IMG/VR virus record: IMGVR_UViG_3300037384_000074
Span: 20,112-84,111 of that record
Direction: 5' to 3' (one strand)
DNA length: 64,000 nt
Origin: a virus
Taxonomy: Duplodnaviria; Heunggongvirae; Uroviricota; Caudoviricetes
Of the stretch, positions 13,372 through 60,552 are shown one piece after another; within the stretch, counting starts at the first letter, position 1; each line of letters begins with the position of its first letter. The position numbers and the translations under genes are program-made. The notes under the pieces were generated by a model, which was not told where the DNA came from, did not search any database, and worked only from the letters and a program-made list of their open reading frames with translations.

Positions 13372-14901
13372 ATGGGTAGCATGGATACATTTTATACGTA
13401 TGTCGGTCAGCATTGGGATGATATCTTAGTGTCTGGGTATGAAAACGGCATCAAATTTAATCGCAAAGTCAAGTATACTCCTTATCTTTTCGTACCAGGC
13501 AATGGCGAATTCAAGACTGTTGACGGTAAGAATCTCTCACGGATTGACTTCGATTCGATCAAAGAAGCTCGTGAATTTGCAAAACAATACGATGAGATCG
13601 CTAATTTTAAGATTTACGGTCTTTCAAACTATCCTTACGTGTATCTCTATGAGAAATACCGTAAACTTAGTGTAGATGCTAAGAAGATTCGAGTTGGTAA
13701 TCTCGATATTGAGACTGATTCACAGGATGGGTATGGCAATATCCAGTTGGCTGATAGAGCCATTGTATCAATTACAATTAAGGTACTCCGCGAAAAGGAA
13801 ATTTTCGTACTCGGGCTCAAGCCATACCAGACGGAAGAGCCTGAATTGCTCGATATGATCACCAAAGGCTACAAGATCAAGTATGTTGAGTGTGTAAATG
13901 AAGCAATGCTGTTGCGTCGTTTCATCAAGATATGGCAGCATTTAGAGCTCGACGCCACGATGGGGTGGAACTCTAAAATGTTCGATATTCCATATATTAT
14001 CAAGCGGATTAAGCAGACCCTTACAGAAAAGGATGCTCTTGAACTGTCGCCTTTCAATCGAATTGACAAGGGCGAAGTCACTATGTATGGAAGAGTGAAC
14101 GATGTGTTCACTATTTGTGGCGTTCCTCACCTTGATTACATTGAGGTATACCAAAAGTTCTCCACGCCTGCGAACGGTAGAGAGGAGTCATATACTCTTA
14201 ACTATATCTCAGGTAAGATTTTGAAAGCAACTAAGCTCGATTATTCTGAGTATAGAACGCTTGCTGCACTATATAATCAGAATTTCAACAAGTTCATCGA
14301 CTACAATATCATCGACGTTCTACGTGTTGAGCAGCTTGAAGAGTACCTAAAATATCTTGAACTAGTGTTCACGATTGCGTATTTTGCAGGCATCAATTAT
14401 GAAGATACGTTTGGAACGATTCGACCTTGGGATATTATGATCCATAATTACCTTATGGATCGCGGGATTGCAATTCCCACAAAGGTTAGAAACACCAAAG
14501 AACGTCAGATCGCAGGTGGACATGTTAAGGATCCACATGTTGGCCGCCATGAACATGTAATTTCATTCGATTTTACAAGCCTCTATCCGATGTTGATTCA
14601 ATCTTTCAATATTTCTCCTGAGACTCTTCTAGGGTCTTTCGACCCAGTTGTTGGTGATTATTCAGTTGATAAGATCCTTTCAGGTATAATGTCACAGTAT
14701 GTTGACGAGATGGTCGAAAATAACGTGGCTATTACGGGTAAGGGAACTGTTTTTTCACGAGATAAACAAGGATTCATGCCGGCTTTGATGCAAGAGTTAT
14801 TTGCCGAACGTAAGCGATATACTGCGATCGAAGAGGCGGCAGATGCTAAGTTAGCTCCGGTGATGACTGAAATTGAGCGTAGAGGAATTAAGACGAAGTG
14901 A
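13372..14901 (+). CDS. DNA polymerase family B, N-terminal portion (exonuclease domain + motif A), gp43-like
   Basis: FDFTSLYPMLIQSFNISPETL equals pol-B motif A and aligns with T4 gp43 FDLTSLYPSIIRQVNISPETI. The ORF ends with ...IKTK immediately before motif B. Confidence 0.85.
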   Translation: MGSMDTFYTYVGQHWDDILVSGYENGIKFNRKVKYTPYLFVPGNGEFKTVDGKNLSRIDFDSIKEAREFAKQYDEIANFKIYGLSNYPYVYLYEKYRKLSVDAKKIRVGNLDIETDSQDGYGNIQLADRAIVSITIKVLREKEIFVLGLKPYQTEEPELLDMITKGYKIKYVECVNEAMLLRRFIKIWQHLELDATMGWNSKMFDIPYIIKRIKQTLTEKDALELSPFNRIDKGEVTMYGRVNDVFTICGVPHLDYIEVYQKFSTPANGREESYTLNYISGKILKATKLDYSEYRTLAALYNQNFNKFIDYNIIDVLRVEQLEEYLKYLELVFTIAYFAGINYEDTFGTIRPWDIMIHNYLMDRGIAIPTKVRNTKERQIAGGHVKDPHVGRHEHVISFDFTSLYPMLIQSFNISPETLLGSFDPVVGDYSVDKILSGIMSQYVDEMVENNVAITGKGTVFSRDKQGFMPALMQELFAERKRYTAIEEAADAKLAPVMTEIERRGIKTK

Positions 14902-14920: not shown

Positions 14921-15697
14921 ATGAAACCAAACAGTAAAAAACAGTATATTCAAGAATTGGCCCCAATAATCCAGAACCTCTTAGATTCTGGACTCTCACT
15001 AAGTGAGGGTTGTACTAAACTGGGATTAATATACCACGCGACCTACGCTTTGTTAAAACGTCATACTAATTTAGTAATATCTACTAAGACTAACGGTAAA
15101 AGTGCATCAACATTAAAGGCCTTTCAAAATAAGATCAAAATTCCTGATTCCGAATTAGAAACGATAAAAGATCTATATTTCAATGAAATGATGTGTTTGA
15201 GCGCAATAGGTAAACGTTATAATACAACAGGTGCGACAATTATGTCTTTTATGAAAAGACATAATATCGTTAGACGAACTCATCTCGAAAACAAAATTCG
15301 AATGCTAGATCGACCTGAGTATAGAGCTCAACTAAAAGATTGGGGTGTTCAAGGATATCTAGCTAGACGAACTACACGAACTAAACCTGAACGATTGTTT
15401 GCAGAATTTCTTGAACGTAATAATATAAAATATGAAGAGCAATTTAGACGAGTAGGTAACAAGCACCCTTACGATTTTCGATTGAAAGACTACAATACGT
15501 TAGTTGAAATAGATGGACATTATTGGCACTCCAAACCTGAACAAAAACTGAAGGATGATATTCATACTAATGATGCAATTTCTAAAGGATTTTATGTGGT
15601 CCGTATTTGCACCAGTCAGTTAAAAAATGATAGTTTTAAAGTTATATTAGAGAGATTTTTGAATGAATGTGGATACTCTGTCGAATTTATCGAATGA
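14921..15697 (+). CDS. homing-endonuclease-like protein (Vsr/DUF559-type PD-(D/E)xK nuclease domain) inserted in the polymerase gene
   Basis: The C-terminus VEIDGHYWHSKPEQKLKDDIHTNDAISKGFYVVRI matches the DUF559/Vsr endonuclease pattern (E.DG..H ... D ... G..VvR). AGAGGA RBS. Different codon and amino-acid usage (K/N-rich) from its neighbours. Confidence 0.55.
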   Translation: MKPNSKKQYIQELAPIIQNLLDSGLSLSEGCTKLGLIYHATYALLKRHTNLVISTKTNGKSASTLKAFQNKIKIPDSELETIKDLYFNEMMCLSAIGKRYNTTGATIMSFMKRHNIVRRTHLENKIRMLDRPEYRAQLKDWGVQGYLARRTTRTKPERLFAEFLERNNIKYEEQFRRVGNKHPYDFRLKDYNTLVEIDGHYWHSKPEQKLKDDIHTNDAISKGFYVVRICTSQLKNDSFKVILERFLNECGYSVEFIE

Positions 15698-20004: not shown

Positions 20005-20294
20005 ACACGGCGTATAAGATTGCTGTTCTAGTCGCACTCGGTTCCGTTATGGCCGCATGCGCTAAACCTCCAGCGCCAGTAGTAATTGATCAGACGAGGA
20101 CTGTTGTAATTGCGCCTCCGGAAACTCTTTTGAAATGTCCTGAGTTGAAACAACTGCCTAATCCTGATACTCTAACAAATCAGCAGGCTGTGTCAGTTAT
20201 ATCTAAGCTGGTTGAAAATAACCAAACCTGTGCAATCAATATGGCTCAAATTAAAGCCTATGTAACCCGAGCTAAGGTCACTCATGCTGACTAG
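20001..20294 (+). CDS. outer-membrane spanin lipoprotein (o-spanin, Rz1-like)
   Basis: Signal peptide with lipobox VMAAC, proline-rich AKPPAPVVI segment, conserved Cys; ATGA overlap with the i-spanin gene. Confidence 0.6.
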   Translation: MNTAYKIAVLVALGSVMAACAKPPAPVVIDQTRTVVIAPPETLLKCPELKQLPNPDTLTNQQAVSVISKLVENNQTCAINMAQIKAYVTRAKVTHAD

Positions 20295-24693: not shown

Positions 24694-25977
24694 ATGCGTG
24701 TTTATGAAGTTGGCGGCAAAGTTAGAGACTCTATATTGGGGATGGCATCAAATGACATTGATTATGTCATTGTTGGAGGCACCCATGAAGAGATGATTGC
24801 TGCCGGTTATAAGCAGGTTGGGGTCGATTTTCCAGTCTACATTGATGAAAAGGGTATCGAGCATGCTTTCGCTCGCACTGAGCGAAAGACTGGTGATGGA
24901 TACACGAGTTTCACTGTATCGACTCTGAATGTCACACTCGAAGAAGATCTTGCCCGCCGCGACCTCACTATCAACGCCATGGCGCAGCGAGCGAGATCTC
25001 ACCCACTCGATGATGGGTCCGACGATGGATATGACCATCATTGGATGGATACTGCCGCGGTAATCGATCCTTATAAGGGTCGTCGTGATCTCGACACTTG
25101 TGTGATTCGGCACGTGACAGACGCCGGGTTTGTTGAAGATCCTGTCCGAATCTTGCGAGTTGCGCGATTTTTGGCACGATTCCCCACGTTTGATGTCCAT
25201 CCTGACACCTTCAAGTTGATCAAGAAAATGGTCGACGACGGGATGGTTCATCATCTTGTACCTGATCGAGTCGCGCTAGAGCTCAAGAAGGCTCTATCAT
25301 CATCGGTTCCTTCTAGGTTCTTCTACTTCCTTCAAATGGTAGGGGCACTGGAAATACTGTTTCCTGAACTCCACGCTTTGATCGGAAAAACTCAGCCTTC
25401 TCGTCATCATCCTGAAGGGGATGCGTTCGTTCATACGATGCTCGTCCTCGAAGAGAGTGCAAATCGATCCGACATCATGTATCGTTGGGCAGCTCTCGTG
25501 CATGATCTTGGGAAGGGGACTTCTGATATAGCGAATCTCCCTCATCATTATGGGCATGAAGATCGTGGGCCTGCTCTTGTAGAGAAGATGGTTAAGCGTC
25601 TCAACCTGTCGAATGACTTCTTGAAGGTCGGGCAGTTTGTGGCGAAGTATCATACTCATGTTCATCGTGTCTTTGTGATGAAGGCTAGCACTATTGCCAA
25701 TATCGCAGAGCTCTCGGTCGTTCGAGATCGAAAGATGATAGAGTATCTGTGCATCACATCTAGCAACGATGCACGTGGGCGTGGGCCATACTATGCGCGC
25801 GTATCGTATCCAAATTGCGCTGCAATGTCCTCTGCTTTGCACGCTGCAGTAGATATCAACCTACGAGATGTAATGACTGAGGAAGAGATTGAAAAGGCTT
25901 CGATCGATAAGCGGAAACAAGTTCTGTTTCGAGCTCGAACCAACGCTGTCAGTAATGCACTCGCAAGATTCAAGTAG
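24694..25977 (+). CDS. cca: CCA-adding tRNA nucleotidyltransferase with HD phosphohydrolase domain
   Basis: Head MRVYEVGGKVRDSILG...DIDYVIVGG (GGxVRD, DxD) and HD domain HHPEGDAFVHTMLVLE...HDLGK; 427 aa, as in class II bacterial CCA enzymes. Confidence 0.8.
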   Translation: MRVYEVGGKVRDSILGMASNDIDYVIVGGTHEEMIAAGYKQVGVDFPVYIDEKGIEHAFARTERKTGDGYTSFTVSTLNVTLEEDLARRDLTINAMAQRARSHPLDDGSDDGYDHHWMDTAAVIDPYKGRRDLDTCVIRHVTDAGFVEDPVRILRVARFLARFPTFDVHPDTFKLIKKMVDDGMVHHLVPDRVALELKKALSSSVPSRFFYFLQMVGALEILFPELHALIGKTQPSRHHPEGDAFVHTMLVLEESANRSDIMYRWAALVHDLGKGTSDIANLPHHYGHEDRGPALVEKMVKRLNLSNDFLKVGQFVAKYHTHVHRVFVMKASTIANIAELSVVRDRKMIEYLCITSSNDARGRGPYYARVSYPNCAAMSSALHAAVDINLRDVMTEEEIEKASIDKRKQVLFRARTNAVSNALARFK

Positions 25978-29512: not shown

Positions 29513-29965
29513 ATGTCTCTATTCGAGAAGATTAAGAAAGATTATTACCGAACTCGCCTCGCTAAGGAAACAATCAGAATCAACCTATTGTCAACTCTGA
29601 TTGGCGATCTCGAGAGCTCTGCTAAGTTCGTTGATGGCAAGAAAGTTGTTGACGATCAGGCTGTAATCGGTATGATCAAAAAGTACCTCAAGAATAATGA
29701 AATCATTCTCGAGGCAGTTAAGCGAGTACCAGGTCGTTCTCCTGAAGAGGTGACCGCGCAGAGTGAATCAATCTATCGCACAACGAAGGAAATCGAAGTG
29801 TTGAACAGTTTTCTTCCTCAGCAGTTGTCTGAACAAGAGCTCAAAGATATCCTGAAGACTCTTTCGCAGCGGCCTGATTTCCCAAACTGGATGAAGTTCT
29901 TGAAGGCGAACTTCGCTGGACTGTATGATGGCAAGGTTGCTGCAGAAATCTTCAAGAATGCCTGA
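29513..29965 (+). CDS. GatB/YqeY-domain protein
   Basis: MSLFEKIKKDYYRTRLAKETIRINLLSTLIGDLES resembles the YqeY N-terminus (MSL...LRLSTLR). ATG 29513 follows the upstream stop. Confidence 0.5.
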   Translation: MSLFEKIKKDYYRTRLAKETIRINLLSTLIGDLESSAKFVDGKKVVDDQAVIGMIKKYLKNNEIILEAVKRVPGRSPEEVTAQSESIYRTTKEIEVLNSFLPQQLSEQELKDILKTLSQRPDFPNWMKFLKANFAGLYDGKVAAEIFKNA

Positions 29966-30041
29966 ATGGTCAGCCATAGACACAAATCTAGGCACATCTC
30001 CTATGATGCCAACTGATCCAACATTTAATTGGAGAGAATTT

Positions 30042-31133
30042 ATGCTTGAAACTATTGACGTTATCGAACACGTTGCAATGGATGTTGATATGACTGGCGG
30101 ACGAGCGCTAGCCACCGTCCGTCGCATTTCTGCACTAGATCCGATTCCAAACGCAGATCGGATCGAGCTTGCTACCGTCGATGGTTGGCAGGTTGTTGTC
30201 GCCAAGAATGTTGGTCATAAGGTAGGCGATCTTATCATTTATTTTGAAATCGACTCATTTTTGCCAATTGAGCCACAGTATGAGTTTCTTCGCAAGGGAT
30301 GTTACACCAAGAATACTGTTTACGGTGAAGGGTTCCGCCTCAAGACGATCCGCCTTCGCGGTGCCCTAAGTCAAGGGCTCATTATGCCTATGAGTGATAT
30401 GTATAGCTCTCTGCTTGGGTCTAATGATTTTTACGAAGGACAGGACGTTACCGAAATCCTCGGCGTCAAGAAGTATGAGAAGCCTCTTCCTGCATCTCTT
30501 GGGGGCATTGCTCGCGGCAATTTCCCGAGTTTCATCCCGAAGACTGATGAGGATCGTATCCAGAACTGCTTCGGTCGTCTGAAGCATAAGGTTCCAGACC
30601 AGCTCTACGAGGCTACAATCAAGCTTGATGGTACATCATTCACGGCGTATTATCATCGTGAGACTGATCGTTTCGGTGTCTGTTCGCGTAACCTCGATCT
30701 AGAGGAAACGGAAGGTAACCTATATTGGCAGATCGCTCGCCAGTTCAATATCGAAGATATTCTTTGCAATGCTGTCAGTGGATCTTTCGCCATTCAGGGT
30801 GAAATTATCGGCTCGGGTGTCAACGGCAACTGGGAAGGAATTGGTCACAACGAGCTTTATATTTTCAATGTATGGGACATTGAAAATCAGAAGTATCTTG
30901 ATTCCGAAGAGCGAATCGCTTTTGTCCAGGATATGGCTGGTCTCAAGAACGCGCCTGTAGTTGGCTATTATCGGTTCAGTGAATTTGATAGTGTCAATGA
31001 CTTCCTCCAGTTTGCTGATGGTCCTTCTATCTATAATGATCAGCGTGAAGGTGTTGTTTTCAAGGGTGTTGACGATCCTTCGATCAGTTTTAAAGTTATT
31101 AGCAACGCCTGGTTGATTTCATCTGGAGAATAA
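30042..31133 (+). CDS. ATP-dependent RNA ligase with N-terminal tRNA-binding OB domain (Myf/Trbp111-like)
   Basis: N-terminal IPNADRIELATVDGWQVVVAKN resembles the tRNA_bind domain (hPnADkL...VD.G...iV.ga.N); IKLDGTSFTAYY is the KxDG nucleotidyltransferase motif I; GGAGAG RBS. Confidence 0.6.
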   Translation: MLETIDVIEHVAMDVDMTGGRALATVRRISALDPIPNADRIELATVDGWQVVVAKNVGHKVGDLIIYFEIDSFLPIEPQYEFLRKGCYTKNTVYGEGFRLKTIRLRGALSQGLIMPMSDMYSSLLGSNDFYEGQDVTEILGVKKYEKPLPASLGGIARGNFPSFIPKTDEDRIQNCFGRLKHKVPDQLYEATIKLDGTSFTAYYHRETDRFGVCSRNLDLEETEGNLYWQIARQFNIEDILCNAVSGSFAIQGEIIGSGVNGNWEGIGHNELYIFNVWDIENQKYLDSEERIAFVQDMAGLKNAPVVGYYRFSEFDSVNDFLQFADGPSIYNDQREGVVFKGVDDPSISFKVISNAWLISSGE

Positions 31134-47256: not shown

Positions 47257-47706
47257 ATGATCACTTTCAACCAATACATCACCGAGCTCTTCGATAAGGC
47301 CGCACCATACCAGATAGTAAATGAGAAGCTCACTCATTTTGGAGGGTACGTAAGATATCATTTCGAAATTGACTCGCTACAATACGACGCTTATGTTACA
47401 TACTCGTCCAAAGACAAGAGTATCAGCGTGGATTTTAAGCTAAAAAGATCCGATGGAACCTCAACTGTAGAAACTACAGGTGAAGCTGGTCACGACGCAT
47501 CTCTAAAGGTGTTCGGAACGTTAGCTGAGATATTGAGACACGCTCTCGGTAAATGGCCAAAAGCCAGAATCTTGTTCAATGGCGATGGCGATTCTAGAGT
47601 CAAACTGTACCGATCTCTCGGCATGAAGATAGCAAAGATCCTTGGATATAATTACGAGGCTGATGGCGGCGGCAACCATATTTCGATAACACTGACGCCA
47701 AAATAA
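47257..47706 (+). CDS. hypothetical protein, 149-aa family copy A (paralogue of 51979-52428)
   Basis: MITFNQYITELFDK...TTGEAGH...VKLYRSLGMK...TLTPK; about 55% identical to copy B. Confidence 0.5.
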   Translation: MITFNQYITELFDKAAPYQIVNEKLTHFGGYVRYHFEIDSLQYDAYVTYSSKDKSISVDFKLKRSDGTSTVETTGEAGHDASLKVFGTLAEILRHALGKWPKARILFNGDGDSRVKLYRSLGMKIAKILGYNYEADGGGNHISITLTPK

Positions 47707-48974: not shown

Positions 48975-49453
48975 ATATCGAACGGTTGATCGAAATCGCT
49001 GAAATCCTCGAGACGCGATCCTACACTGAGCAATTTGATGTAGGATTCAACATGGCGTATGTTATTACGCCAGCCGCCGAACCAACCCACCTAGGCCCTT
49101 TGACAAATAAGGAGGAGCATGAGTGTGGGACGACCTGCTGTATTGCAGGTATCGCTGCGCTTAGATACCGGCCGGAAATGTTCCACAAAGATTACGTCAT
49201 TTATGATTCAGTATTCATCAGCCCGTTGTATGGCGTAGTTGATATTGCCGAGGAGGTTCTTGGGCTAGATTCCGAAACGGCAGAAAGTCTGTTCTTTCCG
49301 TTGGATGGAATAGTCGCAGGCAGCAACATTAATTGGCGTGACATCAAACCTGAGACTGCTGCCAAAGTGATTCGTAATTTGGTCGCAACTGGTAAGGTTG
49401 ATTGGACAACTCCCGTACTCGAGCAGATAGCTGAGACAGCACCACATCTATAG
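48971..49453 (+). CDS. hypothetical protein, Cys-motif family copy A (paralogue of 53312-53743)
   Basis: MNIERLIEIAEILETRSY...CGTTCCIAG shared with 53312. Confidence 0.5.
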   Translation: MNIERLIEIAEILETRSYTEQFDVGFNMAYVITPAAEPTHLGPLTNKEEHECGTTCCIAGIAALRYRPEMFHKDYVIYDSVFISPLYGVVDIAEEVLGLDSETAESLFFPLDGIVAGSNINWRDIKPETAAKVIRNLVATGKVDWTTPVLEQIAETAPHL

Positions 49454-49596
49454 GAGCATTAACAATGTATATCGTTTATTCGTTCGGCGACTACTATTTG
49501 ACATCTATTCCGGAAACGTGGACATGTCCTGGCCCTTCGGACAGTGTTACGCTGATTCCAGGAACCCTGGACCCCAACGAAGATTGAAACAAATTC

Positions 49597-49680
49597 ACTA
49601 GGTATGCAGAATGGGGCTGCCGGCTGCTCATAACGGTCTCCCGCAAGGGCGAGTAGGTTCGATTCCTACACCTAGTACCA
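49597..49680 (+). tRNA. tRNA-like gene, anticodon CAU (Met or Ile-lysidine), encoded CCA, atypical long variable arm
   Basis: 7-bp acceptor stem ACTAGGT/ACCTAGT; D arm GCAG-aatgggg-CTGC; anticodon loop CUCAUAA; T arm GTAGG-TTCGATT-CCTAC; discriminator A then CCA. A 14-nt variable arm and A at position 8 are atypical. Confidence 0.5.
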
Positions 49681-49696
49681 ATTTCCAGAGGTTGTT

Positions 49697-49969
49697 ATGA
49701 TTATAGTTGTCTGGTTTGTTGTGGGGTTTGCGTCCTCAGTATATCTGTGGCGGATAATGTCTTATGATCACTCTGACTTCAAAGTGTCATCCTTAATTGG
49801 ATGTTTACTGGCCGCAATTCCTGCTCCTATCACTTTTGGTGTGGCAGTTGTAAGTGCTATTGTCGAGCTGGCGATGTGGCTATATGACTTGGCCGTCAAC
49901 TGCGACCTCAACAAAGTGATTATTCGAAGAAAGCCAAAATATGGAAACTACGACAATGTCAGATTCTGA
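49697..49969 (+). CDS. small membrane protein (family with 44274 and 44912)
   Basis: Two TM helices. Confidence 0.45.
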   Translation: MIIVVWFVVGFASSVYLWRIMSYDHSDFKVSSLIGCLLAAIPAPITFGVAVVSAIVELAMWLYDLAVNCDLNKVIIRRKPKYGNYDNVRF

Positions 49970-50321
49970 ACCTGAAGATCCGCTACTGAACAGACTCCGA
50001 GCACTGGCGCTTGATGCCAGTCTTTCCGATGGATGGGAAGACACTGAAGCTGATATTCTATTAGCAGTGGAGATTATCAAGAATCTCACGGCTTTCAATC
50101 TGGCCTCTCTCGAGAAAGACAAGACTCATCGTGAAGAGTTGGAACGTTATATCAAGATGATCAAGGATCTTGAAGAGCAGATCAACAAAAAGGACGAAGC
50201 TCTCGATTGGTATGATGAGCACGGTGCTGGTTGTCGTAAACTAGGTAGTGTCGGCGATCCGTTTCGCCACGCACTTGATGCAGATGGCGGAAAGCGAGCT
50301 CGTGAAGCTAGAATGTGTTGA
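49956..50321 (+). CDS. hypothetical protein
   Basis: ORF 49941-50321; acidic N-terminus, coiled-coil. Confidence 0.4.
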   Translation: MSDSEPEDPLLNRLRALALDASLSDGWEDTEADILLAVEIIKNLTAFNLASLEKDKTHREELERYIKMIKDLEEQINKKDEALDWYDEHGAGCRKLGSVGDPFRHALDADGGKRAREARMC

Positions 50322-50371
50322 CCTTAAACTGATGAAGTGATATGATCCTTTATCAACCAAGGGAGACTCCA
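50318..50371 (+). promoter_or_regulatory. cassette copy 8 carrying a sigma70-like promoter
   Basis: TTGACC-N17-TATGAT, then CCTTTATCAACCAAGGGAGACTCCA ATG. Confidence 0.5.
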
Positions 50372-50581
50372 ATGACGATGATTGTGCACTATCCGTCCAA
50401 GAAAGTCCTGAAGGAAAATATCGGCGAGAAGCTCAACTATACCGAGACGTCGATGTTCGGTGAAGAATACAAGAGCAACGGAACTTTTGCTGTCGCGAAT
50501 CGGCCGCATATTACCAAGATTGGTCGAGAATTTTTCGCTGAAGTGACGATGGAAAATGATCTGATCAAGAAGGTCGTTTGA
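50372..50581 (+). CDS. hypothetical protein
   Basis: 69 aa from ATG 50372. Confidence 0.4.
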   Translation: MTMIVHYPSKKVLKENIGEKLNYTETSMFGEEYKSNGTFAVANRPHITKIGREFFAEVTMENDLIKKVV

Positions 50582-51978: not shown

Positions 51979-52428
51979 ATGATCACTTTCAACCAATATC
52001 TCACTGAACTCTTTGACAAAGCTGTGCCGTACCAGTCGGTAAAGACTACAATAAACAGCTATGGAAGCTTCACTAAATTTAAATTTACAGTTGGTTCGCA
52101 CTATTTCGAAGTCAATATAGCTTATACGACAGGTGATAATAACATCGAAGTAGACTTTTACCTACTAAACCCTGATGGCAGCACGACAGTAAAAACTACA
52201 GGGGAGGCTGGTCATCAGGTTTCCGTAAAAGTATTTGCCACTGTGGCTGACATTCTCAAGCATGCTCTCAAGAATTGGCCAAATGCTAGAATCACGTTTA
52301 TTGGAGATGGTTTATCTAAAGTAAAACTGTACCGATCTCTTGGGATGAAATTAGCGAAAGTCCTCAATTACAAATATGATGAGCGCGGTGCAGGTGATTG
52401 GATCGGAGTCGTCCTAACACCAAAATAA
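51979..52428 (+). CDS. hypothetical protein, 149-aa family copy B
   Basis: Same length as copy A, with a shared N-terminus (MITFNQY.TELFDKA.PYQ) and C-terminus (KLYRSLGMK). Confidence 0.5.
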   Translation: MITFNQYLTELFDKAVPYQSVKTTINSYGSFTKFKFTVGSHYFEVNIAYTTGDNNIEVDFYLLNPDGSTTVKTTGEAGHQVSVKVFATVADILKHALKNWPNARITFIGDGLSKVKLYRSLGMKLAKVLNYKYDERGAGDWIGVVLTPK

Positions 52429-55000: not shown

Positions 55001-55308
55001 CCCCTTTATACGATCCTGAACTAGCAGCCAAAGTCACTAAATCTGGACAAGAAGCGATTAAGTCGATGACAGCCTCAATCAAAGTATGGGTGATTCGTGG
55101 CCAGATGATGGTCAACACGAGTGCACTTGAGTGGCATGACCCTGATCATCCGTACAACCAGATTAAGTCGCAAGGCCTAATACCTGAGTACTACGGATAC
55201 TCCCATCCGCTACATGAGCGATTCAAGGACAACTCTAGAGGTGACTTGATCGACATGATTGTAGATCTTGAAACACAGTTAGTTGGTTATATGAGGGAAT
55301 TTGGATGA
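54997..55308 (+). CDS. hypothetical protein
   Basis: ATGA overlap. Confidence 0.4.
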   Translation: MTPLYDPELAAKVTKSGQEAIKSMTASIKVWVIRGQMMVNTSALEWHDPDHPYNQIKSQGLIPEYYGYSHPLHERFKDNSRGDLIDMIVDLETQLVGYMREFG

Positions 55309-59353: not shown

Positions 59354-60552
59354 GCGAGTATTTAGTGAAGCAGAGGGCTATTAGGTATAGATCTCCCACG
59401 CATGCAGGAGGTCGAGAAGGGTACAACGACACCGTCCCTTACCTGAGTTGCTATTGCGGGGACAAACGGCACTCGATGATTCTAGATCAATTCGATGCCT
59501 CTGTTTCACTAAGTATTTGTTGACTTTATACGCCTGTAGATTGAATATCTACGTGCACAGTAGTAAACGGATGTGTGGTGGACCACAGGGCCCTCTGAAA
59601 AGGGCCCGTTCTGGGTTCGATTCCTGGCTCTGGTTTGATCTACAGGCGTATAAAGTCAAGCTGTTTGAAATGTGAATTAGAACTTCTGAACTGAGCTTTG
59701 ATGGTATATCACCTTATGGGAGAATGGCCCATGGGTAGATATTCGGGAACAATCGTATGGAATGCTGCAACATTCCTATATAAACCCCGACCATTTGCAG
59801 ATGGCTCGCTTGAACTAGCGACGAGTCAAGGCTCTGTTCAGAAGTTCTTTAGTGTCATATTCGCAAATTATAGAATACAACGTTGAGTGTTGAATCAAGC
59901 GAAAGAACGGGTCGACCGATCAGGCAACTTCGTGGAAATAAATACACTAGCGGCGAGTTAGGCTACCTGAAAGCAATCCTCGTGTAACAGAGTTAGGGTG
60001 ATGTAAACTGTGGCAAGTAGTGAATTGGTCGAAATTCACGAAAGGATCATAGGCTAAGTTGGATAGTAGTCGAAGAGGTTCGGCCGAACTTTTAGGTGAA
60101 ATTTGGCGATGCAGCATGACAGGTCCAAAAATAAATCCTGCTGTGTAGGTGGAATCCCTACCCCTTACAGATTTGAATTGACTGAGTGACGGTTTCCAAG
60201 GTATGCGAAAGTAGGAGCGTCGTTTCACTCTGAGGATAGCAGAAAAAGGCGGGTAGAGCTTAATAGGCTCCTGTGGGGTTTGCCGCCAGGTATTAGTACG
60301 GAACGTGAGTTTGGCAGAAATGCCGGAAACGGAACTCTCTCCTGAAAGTTATCTGTCCACCGACAATACGAATTGGCTCTCTGGCGAAATGGTAGACGCA
60401 CCTCGCGAAGAGTTGATGGAAGTAGTAAGCGAAGGATATCATGTATTAGCTAGTGCATGATTTGAGAATGCGCTGCGAAACGGGATGCGAAGATTCTAGC
60501 TGGATAGAGGCGCCGCGATACCAGTGAGGAATAATAGCAGAACACCATTGTT

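Follow-up and report, generated by a model that had tools for sequence, protein, structure and literature searches.

What does a tRNA gene encode when it reads CAU in its anticodon, the triplet of methionine tRNAs, and yet carries a long, hairpin-forming variable arm? We addressed this question for a gene in a 64,000-nucleotide stretch (referred to below as the window) of the virus record IMGVR_UViG_3300037384_000074, positions 20,112 to 84,111 of that record. ARAGORN called a tRNA-Met(cat) with boundaries at exactly 49597-49680 (+), and the same complete 84-nt gene, with its CCA encoded, is supported by the family covariance model described below and by reading the sequence. The two strands of the acceptor stem, ACTAGGT (49597-49603) and ACCTAGT (49670-49676), form seven out of seven pairs and are followed by the discriminator A73 (49677) and the CCA (49678-49680). 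Positions 8 and 9 (49604-49605) are A and U. The D arm (49606-49620) consists of the stem GCAG/CUGC and a 7-nt loop, AAUGGGG, in which G18 and G19 are present; a single C separates it from the anticodon arm (49622-49638), where the stem GGCUG/CGGUC, including two G.U pairs, carries the loop CUCAUAA, with U33, the anticodon CAU (CAT in the gene, 49629-49631) and a purine at position 37. The variable region (49639-49652) spans 14 nt and reads U, then a 3-bp stem CCC/GGG (49640-49642 with 49647-49649) capped by a GCAA tetraloop (49643-49646), then the junction CGA (49650-49652). It is followed by the T arm GUAGG-UUCGAUU-CCUAC (49653-49669), whose loop is of the T-psi-C type. All of these elements lie on the + strand. 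The gene therefore has canonical dimensions, with 7 bp in the acceptor stem and with 5 bp and a 7-nt loop in both the anticodon arm and the T arm, while at 49604 it has an A where a canonical tRNA has the U8 of the U8-A14 tertiary pair. The original prediction, made from the letters alone, had named the fully paired acceptor stem, the D arm, the CUCAUAA loop, the canonical T arm, the encoded CCA, the A at position 8 and the 14-nt variable region with its CCC-GCAA-GGG hairpin, and the sequence agrees with it on every one of these.

If class II tRNAs are taken as those with a variable region of at least 10 nt that has its own stem-loop, the 14-nt hairpin-forming region of this tRNA(CAU) qualifies; the anticodon, however, is not that of a class II isoacceptor (Leu, Ser, Tyr or Sec). 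The 8/4, 9/3 or 8/5 acceptor and T stems of allo-tRNAs and tRNA-Sec-like species are absent, the arrangement here being 7/5. According to a review of non-canonical tRNAs, which mentions neither phages nor tRNA-Met, class II comprises only the tRNAs for Ser, Leu and Tyr and Sec-like species (PMC7609411). A literature search for long-arm CAU tRNAs in phages found no description of such a tRNA or of a phage-only family of them, and the paper on phage vB_OspM_OC, which has a homologue, only counts the tRNAs without commenting on the long CAU one.

General tRNA tools gave a divided answer. The Rfam tRNA model (RF00005, gathering threshold 29 bits) did not report the window copy at the gathering score or at E<=10, the whole window gave no Rfam match at the gathering score, and the vB_OspM_OC homologue barely passed RF00005 (32.9 bits against 29). 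As the model misses this copy, such tRNAs may be under-counted in phage annotation. The single-sequence folding energy was ordinary (z = -0.97). Because the generic tRNA scores are weak, the case for the gene was built on homologues and covariation.

To this end, blastn against 50,697 phage records yielded one full-length relative, an 86-nt gene of the cultured T4-like Ochrobactrum phage vB_OspM_OC that is annotated as tRNA-Met(CAT). A sequence pattern was made of the loops of the D, anticodon and T arms that these genes have in common, spaced so that only long variable regions fit; it matched 23 IMG/VR contigs and 48 metagenome contigs, the latter mostly marine and freshwater. A second pattern without the D-loop constraint contributed just three more contigs (L137-L139, bringing the IMG/VR total to 26), and the copies on these three are the closest relatives of the window gene, with the D loop ACUGGGG and the D stem GCAG/CUGC. 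Altogether, 42 distinct homologues were collected from more than 70 phage or metagenome contigs and from vB_OspM_OC, and ARAGORN called a tRNA(cat) of 80-86 nt in nearly all of the matched contigs. Both patterns gave zero matches in 185,579 bacterial and archaeal species, represented by one genome each, consistent with the earlier remark that such an arm does not occur in bacterial Met or Ile tRNAs; judged by these searches the family appears to be phage-restricted, as its members were found only in phages. A covariance model (R1) built from 18 members scored the family at 87-105 bits and the window copy at 99.9 bits, as against 68 bits for a short-arm paralogue and at most 63 bits for other tRNAs.

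The homologues covary. Among 39 distinct sequences, 94.7% of the cells were standard-paired and 20 of the 24 pairs showed double (compensatory) changes; none of 500 shuffles matched the observed values, and slid registers were only 32-46% paired. All five helices covaried, and RNAalifold independently yielded the same five-helix fold. Pairing reached 99.6% in the acceptor helix (double changes in 6 of 7 pairs), 94.4% in the anticodon helix (4 of 5) and 100% in the T helix (3 of 5), while the D stem comprises 3 bp and an R13.A22 mismatch in 33 of the 39 copies, the window subclade having a fourth G-C pair instead. In the stem of the extra arm all three pairs covaried and 97.3% of the cells were paired, the outer pair being G-C in 22 copies, C-G in 11, U-A in 4 and A-U in 2. 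Across the family the arm starts with a single unpaired nucleotide and has a stem of 2-4 bp that is closed by a loop; this loop fits GNRA in about 29 of 39 copies when the aligned loop columns are read as 4 nt, and opens with G in 30. The covariation shows that the extra arm is a real, selected structure. A chance cloverleaf, or a false positive of ARAGORN, is ruled out by the homologues, the covariation and the RNAalifold fold; on this comparative evidence, the gene is a real phage tRNA gene with a CAU anticodon and an extra arm. The core of the original prediction, a phage tRNA-CAU with a type-II-like arm, was thus upheld by the ARAGORN call, by the covariation of the arm and by a family found only in phage DNA.

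The search patterns themselves set AAUGGGG, CUCAUAA and GGUUCRANUCC, and since they fixed CAU, the invariance of the anticodon is not independent evidence. Several positions that were not forced by the patterns are nevertheless strongly conserved among the 39 distinct copies: A8 (37), U9 (31), A22 (36), G5-C68 (39), A4-U69 (34), G31-C39 (39), A73 (39) and the encoded CCA (36), together with a C-R-A junction after the arm (C in 39, R in 39, of which 34 are G and 5 are A, and A in 38). The arm is accompanied by an altered core, comprising A8, a D loop ending in G (no A21), R13.A22 in most members and the invariant C-R-A junction. In the search free of the D-loop constraint, a D loop ending in UGGGG was present in 25 of 25 long-arm contigs, while the short-arm paralogue on contig L003 has UGGUG. 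This hints at a possible coupling between this D-loop G and the arm, comparable to the one that links D-loop nucleotides to the arm of class II tRNAs. On L003, the short-arm (1616-1690, 75 nt) and long-arm (1804-1887, 84 nt) CAU tRNAs lie 113 nt apart, with a near-same D arm, an identical T arm and A8 in both; what sets them apart is the inserted hairpin and a single base of the D loop (UGGUG in the short, UGGGG in the long).

Compared with known tRNAs, the window gene combines features that are usually separate. Like bacterial elongator tRNA-Met, it has a CUCAUAA loop, A73, acceptor and T stems of 7 and 5 bp, a UUCGAUU-type T loop and G18 G19, and the expected route of charging by MetRS is common to both; unlike elongator tRNA-Met, with its 4-5 nt variable loop, it has a 14-nt hairpin variable region, A8 rather than U8 and a D loop, AAUGGGG, without A21, and most members of its family have a 3-bp D stem. 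With class II tRNA-Leu and tRNA-Tyr the family shares the long variable arm with a stem of 3-4 bp and a 4-nt loop, A14, A15 and A73, and, in most members, a 3-bp D stem with a 13.22 mismatch, but it differs from them in its CAU anticodon, its shorter D loop, A8 U9, and A48 in place of U48. In bacterial tRNA-Leu, tRNA-Ser and tRNA-Tyr the long variable arm is an identity or structural element. The allo-tRNAs and selC* tRNA-Cys are likewise natural long-arm tRNAs with anticodons outside Leu, Ser and Tyr; they have 8/4 or 9/3 stems and serine (or Cys) identity and are bacterial (Mukai et al. 2017, via PMC7609411), whereas in the present family, which occurs in phages only, the stems are 7/5, the discriminator is A73 and the arm is short.

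The genomic setting points to a T4-like phage. All large ORFs of the window are on the + strand and include a ribonucleotide reductase, a family B DNA polymerase, a DnaB-like helicase and an NAD-dependent ligase, as well as a toolkit for tRNA maturation and repair, namely a CCA-adding enzyme with an HD domain (tRNA nucleotidyltransferase, 24694-25977) and an RNA ligase (29925-31133). For the polymerase, the nearest counterpart is the enzyme of Rhizobium phage RHph_I1_18 (47% identity), followed by those of T4-like cyanophages and Sinorhizobium phages; for the ligase, it is the enzyme of Sinorhizobium phage Phosso (42%). On these affinities we assign the window to a phage of the T4 superfamily, and its host may be an alphaproteobacterium. 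The T4 gp43-like polymerase is split into adjacent ORFs in different frames, 13372-14901 (509 aa) and 14921-15697 (258 aa). Recoding of stop codons in the window was considered and found no support, given that TAG ends 10 of 85 ORFs and that the polymerase is split by frame and not by an in-frame TAG. On two of the contigs with the closest relatives, a tRNA with a CUA anticodon (amber suppressor; labelled 'Pyl' by ARAGORN) precedes the family member by 5 nt (L137:3336-3410 and L138:5016-5090), and it was this tRNA that raised the question of recoding.

An ORF of 40 codons stops 10 nt ahead of the tRNA gene, and about 6 nt downstream of the gene comes the ribosome-binding site of the following ORF. 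A scan for promoters and terminators around the gene found nothing convincing, and the flanking DNA (49000-50400) had no match in the 50,697 phage records. The adjoining ORFs belong to no Pfam family and have no homologues beside other family members, so the context is not conserved, with one exception: next to the copies on L137 and L138 there is an ORF resembling window 55060-55281. Paralogous 149-aa ORFs (47257-47706 and 51979-52428, about 4.7 kb apart) flank the tRNA region; both start with MITFNQY.TELFDKA and finish with LTPK, and both show a weak DUF6934 match below the Pfam cut-off. Over 54 non-redundant loci, a family member usually sits in a tRNA cluster, often 5-8 nt from tRNA-Arg(UCU) or other tRNAs. 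The vB_OspM_OC copy (L001, MT028491, 53521-53606) is, like the solitary window copy, isolated; it stands among baseplate genes, about 87 kb from the other 23 tRNAs of that phage at 141-157 kb.

The description of the gene as solitary is right for the window, where the sole other ARAGORN call, a tRNA-Phe(gaa) at 59565-59636, is a dubious tRNA-like element with a poor cloverleaf that scored 13.4 bits on the Rfam tRNA-Sec model and nothing on the tRNA model. Its T-loop motif, GGGTTCGATTCC, is good, it contains a strong GGGCCC hairpin, and an inverted repeat of 22 nt without mismatches (59520-59541 and 59638-59659) encloses it. Taken as a whole (59520-59659), the element folds far better than its shuffles (-70.4 kcal/mol, z = -8), and the left repeat arm has a promoter-like look, with TTGACT at its start and GAATAT 17 nt later.

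To assign an amino acid to the window tRNA, we weighed its identity elements together with the tRNAs that accompany the family. A CAU anticodon and A73 are the main determinants of MetRS, CAU being dominant, and both are present here. A separate reader of AUA, tRNA-Ile(UAU), occurs in 15 of the 54 non-redundant loci with a family member and in 4 of the 5 non-redundant large clusters (at least 10 tRNAs), and on L139, among the closest relatives of the window copy, it lies 6 nt after the family member. In the complete genome of vB_OspM_OC the CAU tRNAs number exactly three, namely an initiator-like one (C1xA72), an ordinary type I one resembling that phage's own tRNA-Ile(GAU) and the long one; the assignment of the two non-initiator tRNAs to Met or Ile2 is by resemblance only. 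Because the family co-occurs with tRNA-Ile(UAU), and because vB_OspM_OC has three CAU tRNAs, we cautiously favour an elongator tRNA-Met as the identity of the window tRNA.

The alternative that has to be taken most seriously, although we think it less likely, is a tRNA-Ile2, in which the host TilS would turn C34 into lysidine, IleRS would charge the product and AUA would be read, a codon commoner in the phage than a GC-rich host supplies for. The anticodon loop is the same as that of tRNA-Ile2 of bacteria and T4-like phages, the window phage is itself T4-like, by the 47% identity of its polymerase to that of RHph_I1_18, with a GC content below that of its likely host, and T4-like phages with tRNAs are reported to carry a CAU tRNA that is read as lysidine-modified tRNA-Ile (PMC1524935). 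The commonest partners of the family, Arg(UCU) at 26 and Leu(UAA) at 21 of the 54 loci, serve codons ending in A, which GC-rich hosts use rarely, a pattern better suited to a reader of AUA than to a Met tRNA, and several contigs hold only Arg(UCU) and the family tRNA. Moreover, AUA is used at 6.8 per 1000 codons in the window, so an AUA reader would be useful, and since vB_OspM_OC is without tRNA-Ile(UAU), AUA should be decoded there by one of the CAU tRNAs. That role may, however, belong to the type I CAU tRNA of vB_OspM_OC that resembles its tRNA-Ile(GAU), and a tRNA-Ile2 would be redundant wherever the long-arm family and tRNA-Ile(UAU) occur together, which is often the case, and sometimes side by side. 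For E. coli TilS, the determinants in the acceptor stem are reportedly C4-G69 and C5-G68, a rule said to be species-specific, whereas in the window tRNA 4-69 is A-U and 5-68 is G-C. A GAU-containing arm loop, present in the long tRNA-Ile(UAU) genes that these phages encode, is also missing from the window tRNA. The tRNA-Ile of T4, at 74 nt, is of the ordinary class I type, unlike the long-arm family; a kinship with it was rejected, as it shares nothing with the family beyond general tRNA features and is not matched by the family model.

The remaining readings are less probable still. An initiator specific to the phage, one of the options in the original prediction, is the least likely of all: the CAU anticodon and the weak A1-U72 pair of the window copy would suit it, but positions 1 and 72 form a standard pair in 38 of the 38 copies that cover position 1 (G-C in 17, C-G in 11, G.U in 6 and A-U in 4), the anticodon stem has C29-G41, U30.G40 and G31-C39 and hence not the three G-C pairs by the loop, and several of the carrier phages have a separate initiator-like CAU tRNA (C1xA72 or A1xA72). 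It is because 1 and 72 pair and the GGG/CCC anticodon stem is missing that we set this option aside. Scarcely more credible is a remoulded tRNA-Leu that kept Leu or a dual Leu/Met identity, so that some AUG codons would be read as Leu. Bacterial LeuRS does not read the anticodon, and the 3-bp D stem with its 13.22 mismatch, A14, A15, A73 and the 3-4 bp arm are in keeping with such an origin, as are tRNA-Leu and tRNA-Tyr being the next-best matches of the family model after its members, and the tRNA-Leu(UAG) of Ralstonia phage RsoM2USA, whose arm (UG-CCC-GAAA-GGG-CGU) and T arm are nearly identical and whose score on the family model is 63 bits. Yet CAU is a dominant MetRS determinant, and the family has a D loop 2 nt shorter than that of tRNA-Leu, A48 instead of U48, and A8 U9 instead of U8 G9; D-loop size, position 48 and positions 8-9 are core features on which E. 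coli LeuRS depends. A comparison of D-arm and T-arm identity across isotypes did not separate them and found no special closeness to tRNA-Leu. A tRNA-shaped RNA with a mainly non-decoding function is improbable, though a little less so than these two; it could act as a decoy or sponge for tRNA-targeting host enzymes, as a processing signal in an operon, or as a primer or handle for a phage enzyme. The unusual core (A8), the low scores on generic tRNA models, the repair and maturation enzymes encoded by the phage, and the position of the window and vB_OspM_OC copies, isolated between protein-coding genes and distant from the main tRNA cluster, would fit this reading. Against it, the anticodon loop, A73 and encoded CCA are conserved (CAU itself having been set in the search patterns), a canonical T loop is accompanied by G18 G19, and most homologues are found inside tRNA operons, a few nucleotides from other tRNAs. 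This usual place in phage tRNA clusters makes a purely regulatory element, which the original prediction had also proposed, unlikely.

If the window tRNA is an elongator tRNA-Met, its life cycle can be sketched as follows. Since there is no adjoining promoter or terminator, the upstream stop lies 10 nt before the gene and the next ribosome-binding site about 6 nt after it, we infer that the tRNA would be cut by RNase P from a polycistronic transcript of small genes and trimmed at its 3' end to the encoded CCA. With CCA encoded, this end would need trimming only; the phage also has a CCA-adding enzyme of its own. By the established identity rules of MetRS, the host enzyme would charge the tRNA with methionine via CAU and A73. 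Class I synthetases approach the tRNA with the variable region facing away, so the arm should be tolerated. The charged tRNA would then be used normally on the ribosome, as an elongator for internal AUG codons. As to the arm itself, our best guess is that it stabilizes the altered core and sets the phage tRNA structurally apart from the host tRNA-Met, a distinct shape that could help it escape host enzymes acting on tRNA, such as nucleases and modification enzymes. Alternatively, the arm may simply have been inherited from a class II ancestor; descent from a tRNA-Leu is weakly suggested by the architecture and by the one very similar arm of a phage tRNA-Leu.

Added arms are not confined to the CAU tRNA. 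On contigs of the closest relatives, the tRNAs for Met, Ile(UAU), Lys, Gln, Asn and Cys have an added arm, mostly GNRA-capped, and the tRNA-Leu arms are lost. The long-arm tRNAs include Ile(UAU) of 90-94 nt, Gln(UUG) of 88 nt (L138:2751-2838), Lys(UUU) of 87 nt (L138:8402-8488), Cys of 84 nt (L139:12991-13074) and Asn of 82 nt (L138:7991-8072), with the arm loops GUAA in Lys(UUU), GCAA in Asn and GAAA in Cys, while tRNA-Leu is short and class-I-like at 76-79 nt (L138:80-157 and 860-938, L139:13360-13435); the tRNA-Leu(UAA) of vB_OspM_OC measures 78 nt. Long tRNA-Ile(UAU) genes (L012:1065-1155, L018:9801-9894, L139:13175-13264, and on L089, L106, L118 and L129) are built on at least three different scaffolds, and all have an arm with a 7-nt loop YNGAUUR (CAGAUUA, CGGAUUA, CCGAUUA or UAGAUUG), in which GAU, the major tRNA-Ile anticodon, occupies the anticodon-equivalent positions. 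The tRNA-Ile(UAU) copy of L002 has a 5-nt arm loop, AGAUG, again with GAU, and the long tRNA-Leu(UAA) of L004 also contains CAGATTA. The YNGAUUR loop may imitate the GAU anticodon loop and so recruit IleRS.

A bolder and rather doubtful proposal is that the arm of the CAU tRNA belongs to a wider redesign of tRNAs in one group of T4-like phages, in which it would serve as a phage mark; the hosts of the T4-like phages with added arms are probably Alphaproteobacteria and marine or freshwater bacteria. If this were true, the mark would let phage tRNAs escape the tRNA-targeting nucleases or modification enzymes of the host while host synthetases still charged them or, alternatively, would be recognized by the phage-encoded maturation and repair enzymes. 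The family raises the questions of which synthetase charges the tRNA, of how far TilS, MetRS and host tRNA nucleases tolerate the arm, and of whether the shape of a tRNA can distinguish phage from host. The conserved, covarying arm on a CAU tRNA seen in phages only shows that class I and class II architectures are exchangeable in nature without loss of the gene.
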